Shown here: piece by piece, positions 14,043 through 19,917 of the stretch
Position numbering within the stretch: position 1 is the first letter of the stretch
Layout of the letters: the number at the start of each line of letters is the position of its first letter
Program-made: the position numbers and the translations under genes
Assembly: GCA_963668175.1 (NCBI GenBank)
Contig: OY764159.1
Coordinates: 3,232,001 to 3,296,000 of the forward strand
Origin: Syntrophales bacterium
GTDB lineage: Bacteria; Desulfobacterota; Syntrophia; Syntrophales; PHBD01
Direction: 5' to 3'
DNA length: 64,000 nt
The notes under the pieces: generated by a model
The model's input: only the letters and a program-made list of their open reading frames with translations
What the model was told of the DNA's origin: nothing
The model's database searches: none

Positions 14043-14102
14043 GGGAATTAATCTGGATCAAAAGATAGGTATGCCAAATCACAATTGACAGGAAGGATTG
14101 TG

Positions 14103-17100
14103 ATGCGAATGTTTACTACGTTGGAGCGAAAAGTTCTTTTAATCATTATAATTCATCTTCTGGTCTTGTTCAGTATTACATCCTATGCTGGGACAGAAGA
14201 ACGCCTAGAACTCCATTTTACCTATACATGGCTTGATTTCAGTTTGAAAGATGGATCCTTAACGCTCAGCTCCTATGGATTTGACGAGCCGATAAAAAAT
14301 GATTGGGAGTTGAAAGCGGTTGGCGTCGACAGCCAGGAGCAGGGGCTCTATCATCTGCGCCGCAGGACATGGAAGGGTTTTTTTCTCAGTGCGGATACCG
14401 TCAAGCATCAAGTATATAAAGTTGTCGGAAAAGATGAAGCCTTTGGGCAAGCAAATAAACAGGGAACAGCTATTGAAGGCTGCTCCGGCTCATTCTTCAG
14501 ATATACAAATGAGATTCGGACATTCAAGTTCTTTTGTAAAACCTCATCCATTGTTTACACCCCACATGACGGCAACATGCAGTTTATGGCCGGCGGCGTT
14601 CCCATCCTGGACAAGGACGGCCTGGAAATCAAACACCTAAGCTCTGAAGGGGGAGATAATTATCAAATCCGCTATAGACAATGGGATAAAAAGTTCTGGC
14701 AGGTCAATCCGGAGGCGGATACTGCCGTGTGGTGGGCAAATGCAGGTACTTTCGGCGTCCTAGTTGGTAACAGAAAGAAACTGTCCGGAGCAGTGGTGAA
14801 ATCTAACATTTTGCAGGGAGACTCCAATGGGTTTGTGGACCAGGGATTCCTGGACGTAAATGAAACAAGTGGTCCCAGATCTGAATGGATAGAATCACGG
14901 AAAAGACTTTACCGCGATATCCTGAAAAACGGAAGTTATGACATTCTTGTCGTGCCTTTTCAAATCCAGGGATACGCCGTTGACCGTCCCGGCCGGTCGC
15001 TTATGACCCGATATCTCGCCGATCGTATCGCCAAGGCCACAGACGCCAGGATTCCGGATGCCACGCTTGTAGCGAGAGCCTTCGGCGAAAACTCACGGAT
15101 GATCGATGAAGCGGATATTTACAGCCTTGCCAATGAATTGAAGGTGAAGACGGTGATCAGGGGTTATGTCGGCCATCACCGTAACGAAAAGATGAAGCTG
15201 ACACTCCTGGTTCAGAAAAATGACGGAGAGAAGTTCACCCCAGCCACGAAGACCGTCCGTCTGGATTGGAAAGGTATTCCGTTTTCCGACGAGCATCCTC
15301 CCGAGGTAGCATTTCAAGATATCATCGAAGAAGTCATACCAAAACTCACCCTGGATATAAAGGGGAAGCGTTCCATGCCTGTCCTGAAAGAAGAGGGCAA
15401 CATCGCTCTTCCGGTGAGCGTGACGGCGCTTACGGCGGCACGAGGAATCTCCCCACACACAAATGCCGCATACCTCCAACTGCTGGGCCTTCTCTTCCCG
15501 ATAGATACGACCGACAAAGAACACCTCTTTGAACGCTCGCTTACCGCATTGACAGACCTTTCGCCGCAATCGAGCGATTATGCGCTTATCAAGGCGAGGG
15601 CCCTCTTCTATCTGCACCGGCGTCCGGCCGCCCTGGCGGCCCTCGGAACACCGACGACGCCTGAAGGAAAAGCGTTCATGGGGCTTTTGAACGGCAATCT
15701 CCCGGAGATGAAGGAATGGGTTCAAAATATCAAATCGCCCATCGGGAAGCTCATGGCCCAGATCGAGCTGTTCGATCTCCGGACCTCATACAAAGAACGG
15801 GTGACAGAGGCTGACTATCTCAACATCGCCAAGGAGTTTCCAGGCTGGGAAGAGATCGTCATGCGCCGCCTGCTGGAGAACGACGGCTGGTATACGGAAT
15901 CGAATCTGGTTGTCAAACAGGCGATGGACAAGTCCTTCCCGATCCCGGGTTTTACAGCCGACGACCTCGTCGGCCGCAGAAAGGCCCTGGGCGCGTCAGA
16001 GGCATCATTCACTGAAGACGAGTTGTCTGCCGTCCGTCATTATCAGCGTTACTTGTCGAACCACAAAAAAGAGATTGCCGATCTGTCGGGAAACGCCGCT
16101 TTGACGAATTGGGACCATCTCGATTTTCTTTATGCCGTTAGTGAAGCCAACCTGCTCAAAGGAATAACTATAGATCTTGATATGAGGGGCATCTATGAAA
16201 GCGCTCTCAGAAAAGCGGCGAGTTATGAAAGCGCTTACCGGGGGCATGCGGGCATGACGTTTCTCAAAGGCAGAGCATTGGCGGGGGTCGCGTCGGAAAA
16301 AAGCGAAAAATACCGTATGTTCATGGACGAAAGCCAAAAAATCCTTCATGGAGCCTACTGGTGGTCGGGCGGTCAGATAAACATACGCGTTCCTTACACT
16401 TTTTCCTGGTATGATTCGGATTATCCCCAACGACCGCATGAGTGGATGACAGGAAGAAAAGACCGGCTGACGTTGAAAGGCGATAAGATATTCGATAACT
16501 ACAAGGTCACGCAGGCAGTTCCCAACGATTCATTCCTCATCGAATTAATGAGGACATCGCTGGCATTAAAATATACGCACGACCAGTTCTGGCCCTTTGA
16601 AAGTTATCACCGAAGCATTTCCTTGCTCAAGACGAAAAAAGAGTATTCCGAAATCCTTTTTGAGGAGAACAAGAACCGCTTCGCGGGCAATCCCGACCAT
16701 CTCCGTTTTTTCACCAAACTGAATTCGGTGTCGGGTGATTCCCTCCAGAAAATCAGCGCCCTCGAAAACGCCATCGCCAAAGCCCCCGATATCTGGGCAT
16801 CGTATGAGGAACTGGGCAAATATTATATAAGCCAGGGCGACTTTAAGAAAGCGCAAGCCACTTTTTTAAGCTATCCGCTTTTCAAGAATCCCAGGAACAA
16901 CTATCGGGTGGAGATGTCCAATTATGCGGCGAATGCCGCTGCTGCCCTCTGGTTGCCTGGAGTAATCGAGGAATCGGTCCCATTATTGGAAATTGCGGCC
17001 AATTCGGACACCTACTCCGCTGCTGAACTGATGAGTTCCGCGGTCCTGGCATTGATCAAAGAAGATTATCTCCGCGCGGCAGCTTATAATCAACAACTGA

Positions 17101-18122
17101 TTAAACGATATGATACGGCCCAGGGTTATGTGCATTATCTTTCTCTCTTGCACATACTGGGTTTTCATAAAGAGGCATGGTCCATTTTCAATATAATGGA
17201 TATCCAGTACAAATCTCCGTTTGTATGGACGCCGGCCTTCATCGGCCACCGTATGGCAGCCAAGACCAGCCATGAGGTTTTTCAGTGGCTTAATCATGAC
17301 CATATAAAGAAAGTGAGTTCGGAAAACCGCATCCGATACGTCATGCTGTATGGTTTGACGGATCGGCCACCCGATCGTGGCTTGCCAGCGATGATCGAAA
17401 AAGTCGGACGTGTAAATCCAAGATTGGATGTTCGGGGGGATATAAAGTACCAGATCAAGTTCGCGGAGGGTTACAATGCGATGACCAGAGGCGAATATGT
17501 GAATGCATACGATTTGCTAAACAAGGCGGGGATCAACCCTTCCGATAGAGCATCCATTTGGCCCTATTATGTCCGAATCGGCATGAAATGTGATAAGAAA
17601 CAGGAAGTGGATCAATTTATGAAGTCGCTACAGAATCCGGAGAAGGCAGTCGCTTTCCAAAATTTGGCATCAGCGTTCTACCATGGTCTCCAGGGACGGC
17701 ATCAGGAGGCGATTCAGAATCTGAACCAGGCGCGATATAATGTGCCCTCCACGATGTTCCAGCCCTTATACCCGTGGTATCAACTTATCGAGACATGCGA
17801 GCTTCTATACAAAGATACGAGCCATGAGCCATACCGGGCGCTTGCCGTCGAATGGGCGCAAATTCATCAGAGACTTCAACCCTGGTTCGCCTGGGCCTAT
17901 GCCGTAGAGGCAAAGTATACAAAATCCGACACGGACCGGGTCAGGGCTCTGGCGCTCGCGCTATACCTGGACAAGAATTCGGAACGCATTTCCGGATTTA
18001 CCAAAGCCGAAAAGGCTACAGCGCTTAAGTGGCTGGAAAAGAACAATCCGTTTCTAAAAGATAATATAAAGATAAAGCAGCAGGCTTCGGGGGTTCAATC
18101 GACCTACGCCCTGGCACCCTAA
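14103..18122 (+). CDS. Very large exported protein: duplicated N-terminal beta domain, alpha/beta domain, long TPR-like region
   Basis: About 1340-codon ORF with signal peptide (…ITSYA), TPR-like helices (e.g. ALENAIAKAPDIWASYEELGKYYISQGDFKKAQATF) and visibly AT-richer codon usage than its neighbours. Confidence 0.7.
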   Translation: MRMFTTLERKVLLIIIIHLLVLFSITSYAGTEERLELHFTYTWLDFSLKDGSLTLSSYGFDEPIKNDWELKAVGVDSQEQGLYHLRRRTWKGFFLSADTVKHQVYKVVGKDEAFGQANKQGTAIEGCSGSFFRYTNEIRTFKFFCKTSSIVYTPHDGNMQFMAGGVPILDKDGLEIKHLSSEGGDNYQIRYRQWDKKFWQVNPEADTAVWWANAGTFGVLVGNRKKLSGAVVKSNILQGDSNGFVDQGFLDVNETSGPRSEWIESRKRLYRDILKNGSYDILVVPFQIQGYAVDRPGRSLMTRYLADRIAKATDARIPDATLVARAFGENSRMIDEADIYSLANELKVKTVIRGYVGHHRNEKMKLTLLVQKNDGEKFTPATKTVRLDWKGIPFSDEHPPEVAFQDIIEEVIPKLTLDIKGKRSMPVLKEEGNIALPVSVTALTAARGISPHTNAAYLQLLGLLFPIDTTDKEHLFERSLTALTDLSPQSSDYALIKARALFYLHRRPAALAALGTPTTPEGKAFMGLLNGNLPEMKEWVQNIKSPIGKLMAQIELFDLRTSYKERVTEADYLNIAKEFPGWEEIVMRRLLENDGWYTESNLVVKQAMDKSFPIPGFTADDLVGRRKALGASEASFTEDELSAVRHYQRYLSNHKKEIADLSGNAALTNWDHLDFLYAVSEANLLKGITIDLDMRGIYESALRKAASYESAYRGHAGMTFLKGRALAGVASEKSEKYRMFMDESQKILHGAYWWSGGQINIRVPYTFSWYDSDYPQRPHEWMTGRKDRLTLKGDKIFDNYKVTQAVPNDSFLIELMRTSLALKYTHDQFWPFESYHRSISLLKTKKEYSEILFEENKNRFAGNPDHLRFFTKLNSVSGDSLQKISALENAIAKAPDIWASYEELGKYYISQGDFKKAQATFLSYPLFKNPRNNYRVEMSNYAANAAAALWLPGVIEESVPLLEIAANSDTYSAAELMSSAVLALIKEDYLRAAAYNQQLIKRYDTAQGYVHYLSLLHILGFHKEAWSIFNIMDIQYKSPFVWTPAFIGHRMAAKTSHEVFQWLNHDHIKKVSSENRIRYVMLYGLTDRPPDRGLPAMIEKVGRVNPRLDVRGDIKYQIKFAEGYNAMTRGEYVNAYDLLNKAGINPSDRASIWPYYVRIGMKCDKKQEVDQFMKSLQNPEKAVAFQNLASAFYHGLQGRHQEAIQNLNQARYNVPSTMFQPLYPWYQLIETCELLYKDTSHEPYRALAVEWAQIHQRLQPWFAWAYAVEAKYTKSDTDRVRALALALYLDKNSERISGFTKAEKATALKWLEKNNPFLKDNIKIKQQASGVQSTYALAP

Positions 18123-18134
18123 GCAGGAAAATCT

Positions 18135-18163
18135 TTGACAAATAATGTATTTTGTGTTTTTAT
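18135..18163 (+). promoter_or_regulatory. Putative sigma70 promoter of the dapA leader
   Basis: Perfect TTGACA at 18135-18140, 17 bp spacer, weak -10 TTTTAT. Confidence 0.55.
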
Positions 18164-18191
18164 CAGATTATCTGATCAATCAGGAAGAGCT

Positions 18192-18290
18192 ATGAACGTC
18201 CTTACAATAACCCTAAGAATCGCAGGCAAGAAGCAGGGAGTCAAGCGCATGGGGCTGCCCATCGCTTTAAGGACGTGTATGCATCCATAA
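18192..18290 (+). CDS. Putative leader peptide (32 aa, MNVLTITLRIAGKKQGVKRMGLPIALRTCMHP) of a dapA attenuator
   Basis: ATG preceded by AGGAAGAG; AAG-AAG at 18228-18233 and AAG at 18243; overlaps a segment complementary to the downstream terminator. Not in the ORF track. Confidence 0.6.
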   Translation: MNVLTITLRIAGKKQGVKRMGLPIALRTCMHP

Positions 18291-18310
18291 CCTCGCAGAC
18301 AGTCTCCTTG

Positions 18311-18340
18311 AAGCCATGGGCACGCCCCATGGCTTTTTTT
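18311..18340 (+). terminator. Intrinsic terminator (attenuator) in the dapA leader
   Basis: AAGCCATGGG-cacgc-CCCATGGCTT plus TTTTT, about 60 nt before the dapA start. Confidence 0.85.
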
Positions 18341-18402
18341 ATGCCCGGAAATCGAAATTCAACCCCAAAATCCATTACAAACTGAAATAGAAAGGAAAAC
18401 TT

Positions 18403-19308
18403 ATGCGGAACATATCATGGGCGGGATGCCATGTCCCCATCATTACCCCCTTCAACGACGACCTGTCGGTCGACGAAGCGGGATTGCGAAGACTCGTCAA
18501 TTATTATATCGAAGAGATCGGATGCGACGGCCTGGTTCCGTGCGGAACGACCGGCGAATCCCCCACCCTGGACCCCGAGGAACATGCCCGCGTCATCGAG
18601 ATCGTGGTCGAAGAGACGAAGGGGCGGGTGCCGGTTATGGCGGGCACGGGCTCCAACAACACGAAGGAAGCCATCGCCATGACCCGGCATGCCGAGGAGG
18701 CCGGCGTCGACGCCAGCCTGCAGGTCTGCCCCTACTACAACCGTCCGACCCAGGACGGTCTGCTGAGGCATTTCGAGGCCGTTGCGGCGGCTACGAAGCT
18801 GCCCCTCTTTATCTACAACATCCCTTCCCGGTCGGCGAGACTCATTGAAGCGAAAACGATGATCGCCCTTTCAGAAATCGACTCGATCGTGGGAATGAAG
18901 GATGCCTGCGGCGACCTGACGGTCACCATGGAGATCATCCGGGCAACTCGTAACAGGGAGAAGAAATTCTACGTCCTGTGCGGGGAGGATTCGCTGACGT
19001 TCCCGATGCTGGCGCTGGGCGGCGACGGAGGCATTCTCGCAGTCTCTCACGTCATCGGCAGGGAATACCGGGAGATGATCAAACTCTACCATTCCGGGAA
19101 TATCGAGGCGGCGCGGGAGATCCATTTCCGGACGCTGCCCGTCGTGCGGGCGCTGTTCATCGAGACGAATCCCGTCCCGGTCAAGGAAGCCCTAGCGATG
19201 ATGGGGCTCCCGTCGGGGAAGCTCCGCCTGCCCCTGGTCCCTTTGAGGCCGGAAAACCGCGAAAGTCTGCGTAAGACCTTAGTTCAACACGGAATCCTGA
19301 AGGCTTAG
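18403..19308 (+). CDS. dapA: 4-hydroxy-tetrahydrodipicolinate synthase
   Basis: ITPF, GTTGESPTL, AGTGSNNT, PYYNRP, IYNIPSR, Schiff-base GMKDA, LFIETNPVPVK, LRLPL. Confidence 0.93.
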   Translation: MRNISWAGCHVPIITPFNDDLSVDEAGLRRLVNYYIEEIGCDGLVPCGTTGESPTLDPEEHARVIEIVVEETKGRVPVMAGTGSNNTKEAIAMTRHAEEAGVDASLQVCPYYNRPTQDGLLRHFEAVAAATKLPLFIYNIPSRSARLIEAKTMIALSEIDSIVGMKDACGDLTVTMEIIRATRNREKKFYVLCGEDSLTFPMLALGGDGGILAVSHVIGREYREMIKLYHSGNIEAAREIHFRTLPVVRALFIETNPVPVKEALAMMGLPSGKLRLPLVPLRPENRESLRKTLVQHGILKA

Positions 19309-19323
19309 AAGAAAGGAACGCCT

Positions 19324-19917
19324 ATGAAGAGAATCGCGTTAACCCTCATGATGGTCCTGCTTCTGCAGGCATCCGCTGACGCCGGAGAGGAGGCGGCTGT
19401 GAAAGATACCTTGTCGGTTATTCACGCGAGAAAAAGCGTCAGGAGCTTCACGGGAGCCGCGGTCGCGAAGAGCGATCTCGAGCGGATCGTCAAAGCCGGG
19501 ATGGCCGCGCCGACGGCCGTGGATAAGCGGCCCTGGTCGTTCGTGGTCGTCACGGAGAGAAAGAAGCTCGACGACCTCGCCGCCGGGCTCCCTTACGCCA
19601 AGATGCTCACCCGCGCCGGGGCGGCCATCGTCGTCTGCACCGAGCCTGCCAAGGCCTTCGAAGGCAGCAGGGATTTCGCGATTATCGATGCGTCGCTCGC
19701 CGGAGAAAACATCCTGCTGGCAATCGAAGCCCTCGGCTTGGGCGGCGTCTGGACGGCCGCCTGCCCTTACGACGACCGGATGAGCCATGTACGGAGCGTT
19801 CTCAATATCCCTGCTCAGGTCATCCCGCTGAACGTGATCGCCGTGGGCGTGCCGACCGGTTCCGAAAAGCCGAAATCCAAATACCAGCCGGAGAGGGTTC
19901 ACTGGGAGACATGGTGA
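19324..19917 (+). CDS. Nitroreductase family protein with apparent signal peptide
   Basis: RKSVRSF, AAPTAVDKRPWSF, ENILLAIEALGLGGVW; N-terminus MKR + hydrophobic stretch + ADA. Confidence 0.88.
   Translation: MKRIALTLMMVLLLQASADAGEEAAVKDTLSVIHARKSVRSFTGAAVAKSDLERIVKAGMAAPTAVDKRPWSFVVVTERKKLDDLAAGLPYAKMLTRAGAAIVVCTEPAKAFEGSRDFAIIDASLAGENILLAIEALGLGGVWTAACPYDDRMSHVRSVLNIPAQVIPLNVIAVGVPTGSEKPKSKYQPERVHWETW

Follow-up and report, generated by a model that had tools for sequence, protein, structure and literature searches.

The window analysed here is a 64,000-nucleotide (nt) stretch of contig OY764159.1 from a Syntrophales bacterium (genome G000), in which a short open reading frame (ORF) with three lysine codons, a set of alternative RNA pairings, and an intrinsic terminator precede dapA2, a gene that profile comparison identifies as a paralogue of 4-hydroxy-tetrahydrodipicolinate synthase. 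The arrangement is very likely a translation-coupled attenuator of dapA2, whatever its exact signal, and is probably, albeit with considerable reserve, a ribosome-mediated (leader-peptide) transcription attenuator tuned to lysine and controlling this accessory gene.

Organization of the dapA2 leader

The element spans ~210 nt from promoter through terminator, and all of its parts lie on the + strand (positions are those of the window):

18135-18140 (+): -35-like hexamer TTGACA of the putative leader promoter (sequence and conservation in homologues)
18158-18163 (+): T-rich -10-like hexamer TTTTAT, 17 nt past the -35 hexamer and 28 nt 5' of the leader ATG
18182-18189 (+): Shine-Dalgarno (SD)-like site AGGAAGAG of the leader ORF (sequence)
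18192-18290 (+): leader ORF, ATG at 18192, 32 codons plus TAA (18288-18290), peptide MNVLTITLRIAGKKQGVKRMGLPIALRTCMHP (ORF listing, homologues)
18196-18203 (+): 5' arm of the protector helix P1, ACGTCCTT, pairing with 18269-18276 (leader nt 5-12 with 78-85)
18225-18248 (+): core under peptide constraint (codons 12-19), G K K Q G V K R (codon-position variability)
18243-18267 (+): hairpin H, anti-antiterminator and possibly a pause hairpin, AAGCG-C-ATGGG / GCTG / CCCAT-CGCTT (folding, alignment)
18258-18273 (+): 5' strand of the predicted antiterminator, CCCATCGCTTTAAGGA, consisting of the H 3' arm and the start of the P1 3' arm, pairing with 18305-18320
18269-18276 (+): 3' arm of P1, AAGGACGT (pairing conservation, RNAalifold)
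18305-18320 (+): 3' strand of the predicted antiterminator, TCCTTGAAGCCATGGG, overlapping the terminator 5' arm (folding, alignment)
18310-18340 (+): intrinsic terminator (hairpin T), stem 18310-18320 / 18326-18336 (11 pairs), loop CACGC (5 nt), T-run 18334-18340 (terminator scan)
18341-18402 (+): spacer of 62 nt, carrying the dapA2 SD AGGA at 18393-18396 (sequence)
18403-19308 (+): dapA2, 301 amino acids (aa), the presumed regulated gene (TIGR00674 profile)

The Lys codons of the leader are AAG-AAG at codons 13-14 (18228-18233) and AAG at codon 18 (18243-18245), the latter being the first codon of the H 5' arm, and the ORF itself is nested in a longer TTG-started frame (18135-18290) of the ORF listing. 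An earlier note on this DNA, made without database searches, had proposed a lysine attenuator built from a ribosome-binding site, a 32-codon leader ORF with tandem and single AAG codons, an intrinsic terminator, a long antiterminator pairing, and a competing protector helix. Each of these parts is indeed present: the ribosome-binding site, ORF, and Lys codons lie where they had been placed, the terminator stem occupies 18310-18336 with its T-run reaching 18340, and the protector helix formed by ACGTCCTT and AAGGACGT has an energy of -7.9 kcal/mol on its own. The promoter hexamers, hairpin H, and the status of dapA2 as the second dapA of its genome had escaped notice.

Conservation points to the two hexamers as the leader promoter. 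The TTGACA motif is kept in 39 of the 45 distinct homologues with upstream sequence, lying 16-18 nt 5' of a T-rich hexamer, which in turn stands 27-33 nt ahead of the leader ATG. A consensus promoter scan skipped this candidate, as the scan demands A at position 2 of the -10 hexamer and the -10 is weak.

Distribution and linkage to dapA2

When the leader (query 18186-18345) was compared by BLAST with all 339 genomes of the order, 30 genomes (G000 included) across 8 of the 24 families showed near full-length matches, with E-values from 5e-29 to 7e-9 for the 29 matches outside the window. In addition, 185,579 species genomes were scanned with a pattern consisting of helix bases only and containing no Lys codon, which returned 28 matches, each identical in its leader to some order-level locus; the record titles name Syntrophales, Smithella, Smithellaceae, Syntrophaceae, Syntrophus, and unclassified Deltaproteobacteria metagenome-assembled genomes (MAGs). 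As judged by this pattern, which diverged forms elsewhere would escape, the element appears limited to one order. A slightly looser pattern applied to metagenomes added 33 further loci, giving a total of 91 loci and 48 distinct pattern-matching leaders (L051 does not match the pattern). This recurrence in 48 distinct homologous leaders places the arrangement beyond chance. Two alignments were used, A1 with 29 sequences (BLAST set only) and A2 with 48 sequences; L059 (a duplicate of L057) and L103 (cut by a contig end) were left out, and L051 stands in for L103 in A2.

The leader is consistently linked to dapA2, which was recognised at other loci by its N-terminus SWAGCHVPIITPF. The gene lies behind the terminator at 29 of the 30 BLAST loci (L053 ends at the contig edge, and at L043 dapA2 has an upstream in-frame start), and an ORF of ~300 aa follows the leader at 26 of the 28 species-genome loci, the other two being L087, which is contig-cut, and L078, where the ORF has 213 aa only. 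Among the 48 distinct leaders, dapA2 is found behind 45, i.e., all those with a long enough contig, the remaining three stopping at contig ends. At 39 of 46 distinct loci, 54-74 nt separate the T-run from the dapA2 ATG. Since the flanking genes vary between loci while the leader stays with dapA2, the pair behaves as a self-contained unit. A second leader copy was not found by BLAST, which gave one in the window genome and one full-length copy in each positive genome. The 213-aa ORF in the MAG of L056 and L078, compared with ~300 aa elsewhere, may reflect truncation or frameshifting of dapA2, or else an error in assembly.

An apparently translated leader with a conserved peptide core

The evolutionary signature of the leader indicates that it is translated. 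The ORF, of 31-32 codons, is found in 47 of 48 distinct leaders (the remaining one is contig-cut) and has a consensus peptide of MNVLSVxRRNxGKKQG(V/I)K(R/Q)(M/L)GLPIxLRTCMx. Within codons 12-19, minor-allele frequencies are 0.056, 0.053, and 0.363 at codon positions 1, 2, and 3, respectively, with all 8 third positions but only 5 of the 16 first and second positions variable (Fisher P = 0.0017). The length changes ahead of codon 19 are exclusively 3-nt deletions (L036, L037, and L124), and an SD-like site lies 3-16 nt 5' of the ATG in 41 of 47 distinct leaders. Taken together, this three-base periodicity, the in-frame indels, and the SD sites argue that the leader is translated.

The leader also keeps codons for Lys, the end product of the pathway, in loci that were gathered by a pattern free of Lys codons. 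K14, G16, and K18 are invariant (48/48) and K13 is retained in 44/48, so the Lys codons and the frame through codon 19, whose conservation the earlier note had named as a check, are indeed preserved in homologous leaders. This conservation acts on the amino acid: AAG and AAA interchange at the Lys positions among homologous leaders, G16 is encoded by GGA, GGC, GGG, and GGT, and three leaders that begin at a different ATG still encode E-Y-K-K-G-V-K-R. Further residues of the block are kept as well, namely V/I17 in 48/48, G12 in 45/48, and Q15 in 42/48 leaders. Position 15 accepts Q, R, K, and P, position 13 accepts E and Y, and positions 8-9 are RR or KK, preserving charge rather than codon. 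Positions 5-11 vary freely and their Thr, Ile, and Met codons are not conserved, which speaks against the suggestion of the earlier note that the peptide might sense the whole aspartate family. The leader peptide matched no Pfam family at E up to 10, and the 51-aa ORF that encloses it, compared with 5.8 billion protein clusters, hit four unnamed clusters of 31-32 aa, all of which are this same leader.

Conserved and competing RNA pairings

Beyond the peptide core, the nature of the constraint changes. Variability in codons 20-28 is spread evenly across codon positions (0.069, 0.089, and 0.084), and in 6 of the 48 leaders a 1-nt deletion in codon 19 turns the rest of the peptide into WG(C/F)PSL-stop with the nucleotides unaltered. 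This even conservation, together with frame shifts that leave the RNA unchanged, indicates that the constraint from codon 20 on acts on the RNA.

The set of P1, H, and T is well preserved, with 94.2% of alignment cells paired in both A1 and A2, compared with 30-62% when the partners are slid (32-62% in A2), and six pairs show compensatory changes. Six such pairs were matched by 6 of 500 shuffles in A1 and 64 of 500 in A2, whereas none of 500 shuffles of either alignment matched the observed number of cells or the covariation score. In A2, P1 has 92.7% of its cells paired with compensatory changes in 3 of 8 pairs, and H has 89.6% paired with compensatory changes in 2 of 10. The terminator has 99.4% of cells paired in the 48 sequences, its presence being partly by construction for the pattern-found loci although not for the 29-sequence BLAST set. 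RNAalifold run on A2 independently predicts P1, the top of H, and T. The antiterminator, tested as 18258-18273 with 18305-18320 plus 18249-18254 with 18325-18330, has 92.3% of cells paired in the 48 sequences versus 33-61% when slid (33-62% over both alignments), the helix of 18258-18273 with 18305-18320 on its own reaching 92.2%; it appears conserved, though without proof by covariation. As far as helices in relatives are concerned, the terminator, protector, and antiterminator pairings foreseen in the earlier note are therefore all kept, with compensatory changes in P1, H, and T but none in the antiterminator.

In the minimum free energy (MFE) fold of 18170-18350, ~18247-18273 pairs with 18305-18333, in agreement with the long antiterminator pairing described in the earlier note; the fold has an energy of -63.4 kcal/mol (z = -3.66), and 0 of 200 shuffles were as stable. 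Evaluated alone, H and T have energies of -13.9 and -17.9 kcal/mol, respectively, and the minimal antiterminator -19.6 kcal/mol. Hairpin H is the main anti-antiterminator.

dapA2 as an accessory paralogue

The product of dapA2 scores 330.5 bits against TIGR00674, the DapA equivalog (cut-off 206.15), and stays below threshold with the HpaI-NOT-DapA exception model (250 versus a cut-off of 396.7); its best relatives of solved structure are all dihydrodipicolinate synthases (DHDPS). These matches support its assignment as a 4-hydroxy-tetrahydrodipicolinate synthase paralogue. The genome holds two dapA genes, and the other copy, ~283 kb from that in the window, scores higher (381.8 bits). DapA1 and DapA2 share 46% identity and have in common the GTTGES, PYYN, YNIPSR, and GMKDA motifs, some residues of which we take to be catalytic. 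The housekeeping copy lies on the minus strand of contig C1 at ~2966100-2969090, flanked by a 420-aa gene and a 268-aa gene, which we read, from their lengths and N-terminus, as lysA and dapB. Upstream of this lysA-dapA1-dapB cluster there is no leader ORF or terminator, and other coding sequence directly precedes it. In this genome, the attenuator is found only at the accessory paralogue dapA2 and not at the housekeeping dapA. The target named in the earlier note is thus a DapA by profile, although it is the second of two copies rather than the housekeeping one.

Among 40 relatives, dapA2 orthologues with 77-84% identity occur in three genomes, and this leader also lies upstream of the best-matching one (G002). 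The region upstream of the orthologue in G029 (L007, 2780-2870, minus strand) carries two ~32-nt direct repeats, ACAAATGACGGCAT[A/G]AGGGACTCTTCCCGGAG.

Proposed mechanism and stall geometry

What the analysis shows directly is the anatomy of the leader, its conservation and coding signature, its link with dapA2, and the stall window obtained in silico (described below); a mechanism can be built on this basis, and we infer that lysine is the signal, that ribosomes stall in the leader, and that read-through ensues. Transcription would begin at the conserved promoter ~20 nt ahead of the leader ATG, and the leader would be translated while RNA polymerase proceeds. When lysyl-tRNA is plentiful, the ribosome would reach the stop codon and either cover CCCATCGCTTTAAGGA or let H re-form behind it, such that the terminator (18310-18340) would fold and transcription would stop ahead of dapA2. 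Without a ribosome, termination would likewise be favoured, with P1 (nt 5-12 with 78-85) and H sequestering the antiterminator strand. When lysine is short, the ribosome would dwell at the Lys codons 13, 14, and above all 18, blocking P1 and H; the freed antiterminator strand would pair with the terminator 5' arm, and polymerase would read through into dapA2, raising the supply of the enzyme that catalyses the first committed step of the diaminopimelate/lysine branch.

The geometry of such stalls was modelled by folding 37 canonical leaders downstream of a ribosome masked at every codon, with pairs across the ribosome forbidden and equilibrium folds only. The terminator probability is 0.00-0.11 with A-site codons 12-18, 0.72 at codon 19, at least 0.97 from codon 20 on, and 1.00 at the stop codon. 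The terminator 3' arm is wholly free with probabilities of 0.42, 0.64, 0.89, and 0.56 at A-site codons 15, 16, 17, and 18, respectively, given a ribosome 3' edge at +12; an edge at +15 shifts the stall window back by one codon. The codons at which a stall gives read-through in silico therefore match the conserved block G12-K18. If pairs across the ribosome are allowed, P1 brings the terminator back from codon 17-18 onward. The earlier note had argued that a stall at the Lys-Lys pair would mask the P1 5' arm and leave the antiterminator largely free. In the modelled folds, the classical terminator is prevented at these codons. However, a ribosome whose A site holds codon 13 or 14 spans approximately leader nt 22-52, and the P1 5' arm (nt 5-12) lies outside this footprint. 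Such a ribosome could block P1 only by sitting inside its loop or via a trailing ribosome.

Evidence weighed against a lysine attenuator

No competing known element emerged, as the leader lacks an Rfam match and the genome lacks a lysine riboswitch. A scan of 17900-18600 against Rfam (Rfam 15) at E up to 10 gave three chance-level matches (E 1.1-4.8), none within 18192-18340 and none to a T-box or other Rfam family in the leader, and the best match to the lysine riboswitch RF00168 in the whole genome reached 14 bits against a gathering score of 30. The absence of riboswitch and T-box motifs stated in the earlier note is thereby borne out. Its overall interpretation, a lysine attenuator, gains support from conservation, linkage, and this lack of Rfam matches, with the lysine response itself being what we infer.

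Several observations weigh against this interpretation. The regulatory codons number only three, and the leader peptide in the window contains no more Lys than Arg or Gly (three each). G12, Q15, G16, and V/I17 are kept at the amino-acid level, for which a pure hungry-codon sensor would have no need. The geometry is also demanding, in that only stalls at approximately codons 15-18 leave the terminator 3' arm free; with codon 13 or 14 in the A site, this arm still pairs with the H 5' arm (0.78), and the resulting long helix, which abuts the U-run in the modelled folds, might itself terminate transcription. At equilibrium, the full long antiterminator helix (-53.8 kcal/mol) far outweighs P1+H+T (-39.4 kcal/mol), making the read-through fold the ground state. 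Because that fold is thermodynamically favoured, termination must rest on what forms first, i.e., on kinetic control; other attenuators likewise depend on which structure forms first. The antiterminator shows 0 compensatory changes in 48 sequences, its covariation score is equalled by 79-111 of 500 shuffles, and many of its columns are invariant, several of them in the pattern-found loci being fixed by the search pattern itself. Moreover, the dapA2 orthologue of G029 (78% identity) has no leader upstream. Finally, an AACTATAAY motif (TATAAY) stands 28-35 nt ahead of the dapA2 ATG in a Smithella-like subgroup (L040, L044, L046, L048, and relatives), where it is kept even if insertions lengthen the spacer, and possibly represents the -10 of a proximal dapA2 promoter that would bypass the leader. 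This motif is missing from the window. Across 46 loci, no promoter is consistently conserved in the spacer between terminator and dapA2, the best score being at most 8/12 in 36 of them (8/12 in the window and 10/12 in L040).

Alternative explanations

The conservation of non-Lys residues could also be accounted for by an arrest peptide, in which a G-K-K-x-G-V/I-K chain in the exit tunnel would stall the ribosome at approximately codons 16-18 and drive the same antiterminator switch, triggered by a small molecule (lysine, an intermediate of the diaminopimelate pathway, or another compound) or a translation factor, as for TnaC and SpeFL. The leader would then encode a new arrest peptide whose pause at codons 16-18 responds to lysine, lysyl-tRNA, or a metabolite of the diaminopimelate pathway, and would act as a nascent-chain sensor coupled to an intrinsic-terminator switch. 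We regard this as unlikely, yet deserving of serious attention, since the identity of G16 (48/48 with four codons), V/I17, G12, and Q15 is under selection while third positions are saturated, positions 8-9 conserve charge over codon, and the conserved block ends exactly where an in-silico stall gives most read-through (A-site codon 16-17). On the other hand, the peptide has no Pfam similarity and, to our knowledge, lacks any established arrest motif (Pro-rich or RAPP-like, for example); just 7-8 residues are constrained, substitutions are tolerated at position 15 (Q, R, K, P) and position 13 (E, Y), and the C-terminal half is frame-shifted in 6 of 48 leaders. For a biosynthetic enzyme, moreover, the simpler logic is induction when the end product runs short, which hungry Lys codons achieve with no ligand pocket.

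Two further explanations fit the data poorly. The ORF might encode a separate 31-residue basic protein, possibly trans-acting, as a gene with a promoter and terminator of its own, while dapA2 is expressed from its own promoter or by constitutive leak-through. Purifying selection on the peptide core, the complete set of promoter, SD, and terminator, and the subgroup TATAAY motif 28-35 nt 5' of dapA2 together with the L040 spacer promoter (10/12) would be compatible with this, and trans-acting leader peptides do exist, as exemplified by peTrpL, cited in PMC10117765. However, the ORF never occurs apart from dapA2 (45/45 where the contig is long enough) and is present as one copy per genome by BLAST while other neighbours vary; the spacer length is held at 54-74 nt in 39 of 46 loci without a consistently conserved promoter; in its second half, the ORF shows conservation at the RNA rather than the protein level; and the terminator sits within a conserved alternative pairing that would be needless at an ordinary gene end, all of which renders an independent gene improbable. 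Still less probable, and in our estimate very much so, is a ligand- or protein-binding RNA switch, in which P1 would close a riboswitch-like aptamer containing H and the reading frame would be secondary. The P1-closed domain, with the P1 3' arm contributing to the antiterminator, does resemble the usual layout of OFF riboswitches, and some compensatory changes occur in P1, H, and T; nevertheless, the supposed aptamer interior is either variable (codons 5-11) or strictly three-base periodic (codons 12-19), indels within it are in frame, the start codon and SD are conserved, and no Rfam family matches.

Relationship to known regulatory systems

Textbooks present lysine-pathway genes as cases of control by riboswitches, T-boxes, or proteins, and leader-peptide attenuation as a mechanism for Trp, His, Thr, Leu, Phe, and Ile/Val, the classical examples being trpL, hisL, thrL, leuL, pheL, and ilvL of E. 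coli and Salmonella. The dapA2 leader resembles these attenuators in its short, evidently translated ORF with codons for the end product, in the intrinsic terminator ahead of the structural gene, and in its predicted mutually exclusive hairpins (1:2 / 2:3 / 3:4); K18 is located at the 5' edge of segment 1, as are the Trp codons in trpL. It differs in that the amino acid is lysine and the three Lys codons are not all adjacent, in the extra long-range clamp P1, which joins codons 2-4 to the antiterminator strand, in the conservation of non-regulatory peptide residues, in its target, a single accessory paralogue rather than an operon, and in its lineage of Syntrophales-type anaerobes.

The lysine riboswitch (L-box, RF00168), with dapA and lysC among its targets, shares with the proposed system the control of the lysine pathway via a terminator/antiterminator switch, whereas the sensing part here is a translated ORF. 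TnaC and SpeFL are metabolite-sensing arrest peptides that act through Rho-dependent termination and sense an inducer (Trp and ornithine, respectively). Like them, the dapA2 leader is short, with a conserved amino-acid sequence (G12, K13, K14, G16, V/I17, and K18) near the predicted stall site, and a ribosome stall, predicted in this case, would decide transcription into the downstream gene; unlike them, it combines an intrinsic terminator with a predicted RNA antiterminator and shows no sequence similarity. A full-text literature search, with subscription journals mostly outside its reach, found no lysine leader-peptide attenuator of dapA. The closest parallel is a Sinorhizobium small ORF with Thr and Lys codons ahead of aspartate dehydrogenase, for which such a role is only suggested (PMC10117765); both are translated small ORFs with Lys codons ahead of an aspartate-family gene, although the Sinorhizobium one, as described there, is Thr-dominated and differs in gene, lineage, and sequence.

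If true, a lysine attenuator at dapA2 would fill a gap by providing a conserved Lys version of leader-peptide attenuation, and would show how bacteria without a lysine riboswitch can sense lysine supply. It would also mark the second DapA of these syntrophic anaerobes as a regulated, starvation-induced isozyme. The conserved non-Lys residues may offer a natural case for a nascent-chain share in classical attenuation. Because its parts (sigma-70-like promoter, SD, and intrinsic terminator) should function in standard hosts, the model is directly testable, and, should it hold, the element could serve as a lysine-responsive genetic part.

Flanking genes and repeated sequences

A 1345-aa ORF (14085-18122) lies immediately upstream of the element and ends 13 nt ahead of the -35 hexamer (18135); an NCBIfam search at E up to 0.001 gave no match for it. 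Downstream, a nitroreductase-family ORF with a hydrophobic N-terminus (19324-19917) starts 16 nt past dapA2; since it is not conserved at other loci, it probably does not belong to the regulated unit there. A perfect palindrome, TCAGAT-T-ATCTGA (18163-18175), located between the -10-like hexamer and the SD of the leader, was considered as a shared operator, which it probably is not, as homologous leaders do not conserve it.

In L038 and L048, the spacers ahead of dapA2 reach ~185-190 nt and carry an inserted palindrome, GGGTATGAACCCC...GGGGTTCATACCC; the insert resembles a small repetitive extragenic palindromic (REP) element or miniature inverted-repeat transposable element (MITE) and parts the attenuator from dapA2. 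On its own, the terminator palindrome (AGCCATGGG-loop-CCCCATGGC with T-run; query 126-154) recurs at more than 60 other loci across the order with ~86-93% identity, as either a preferred terminator sequence or a piece of some dispersed repeat.

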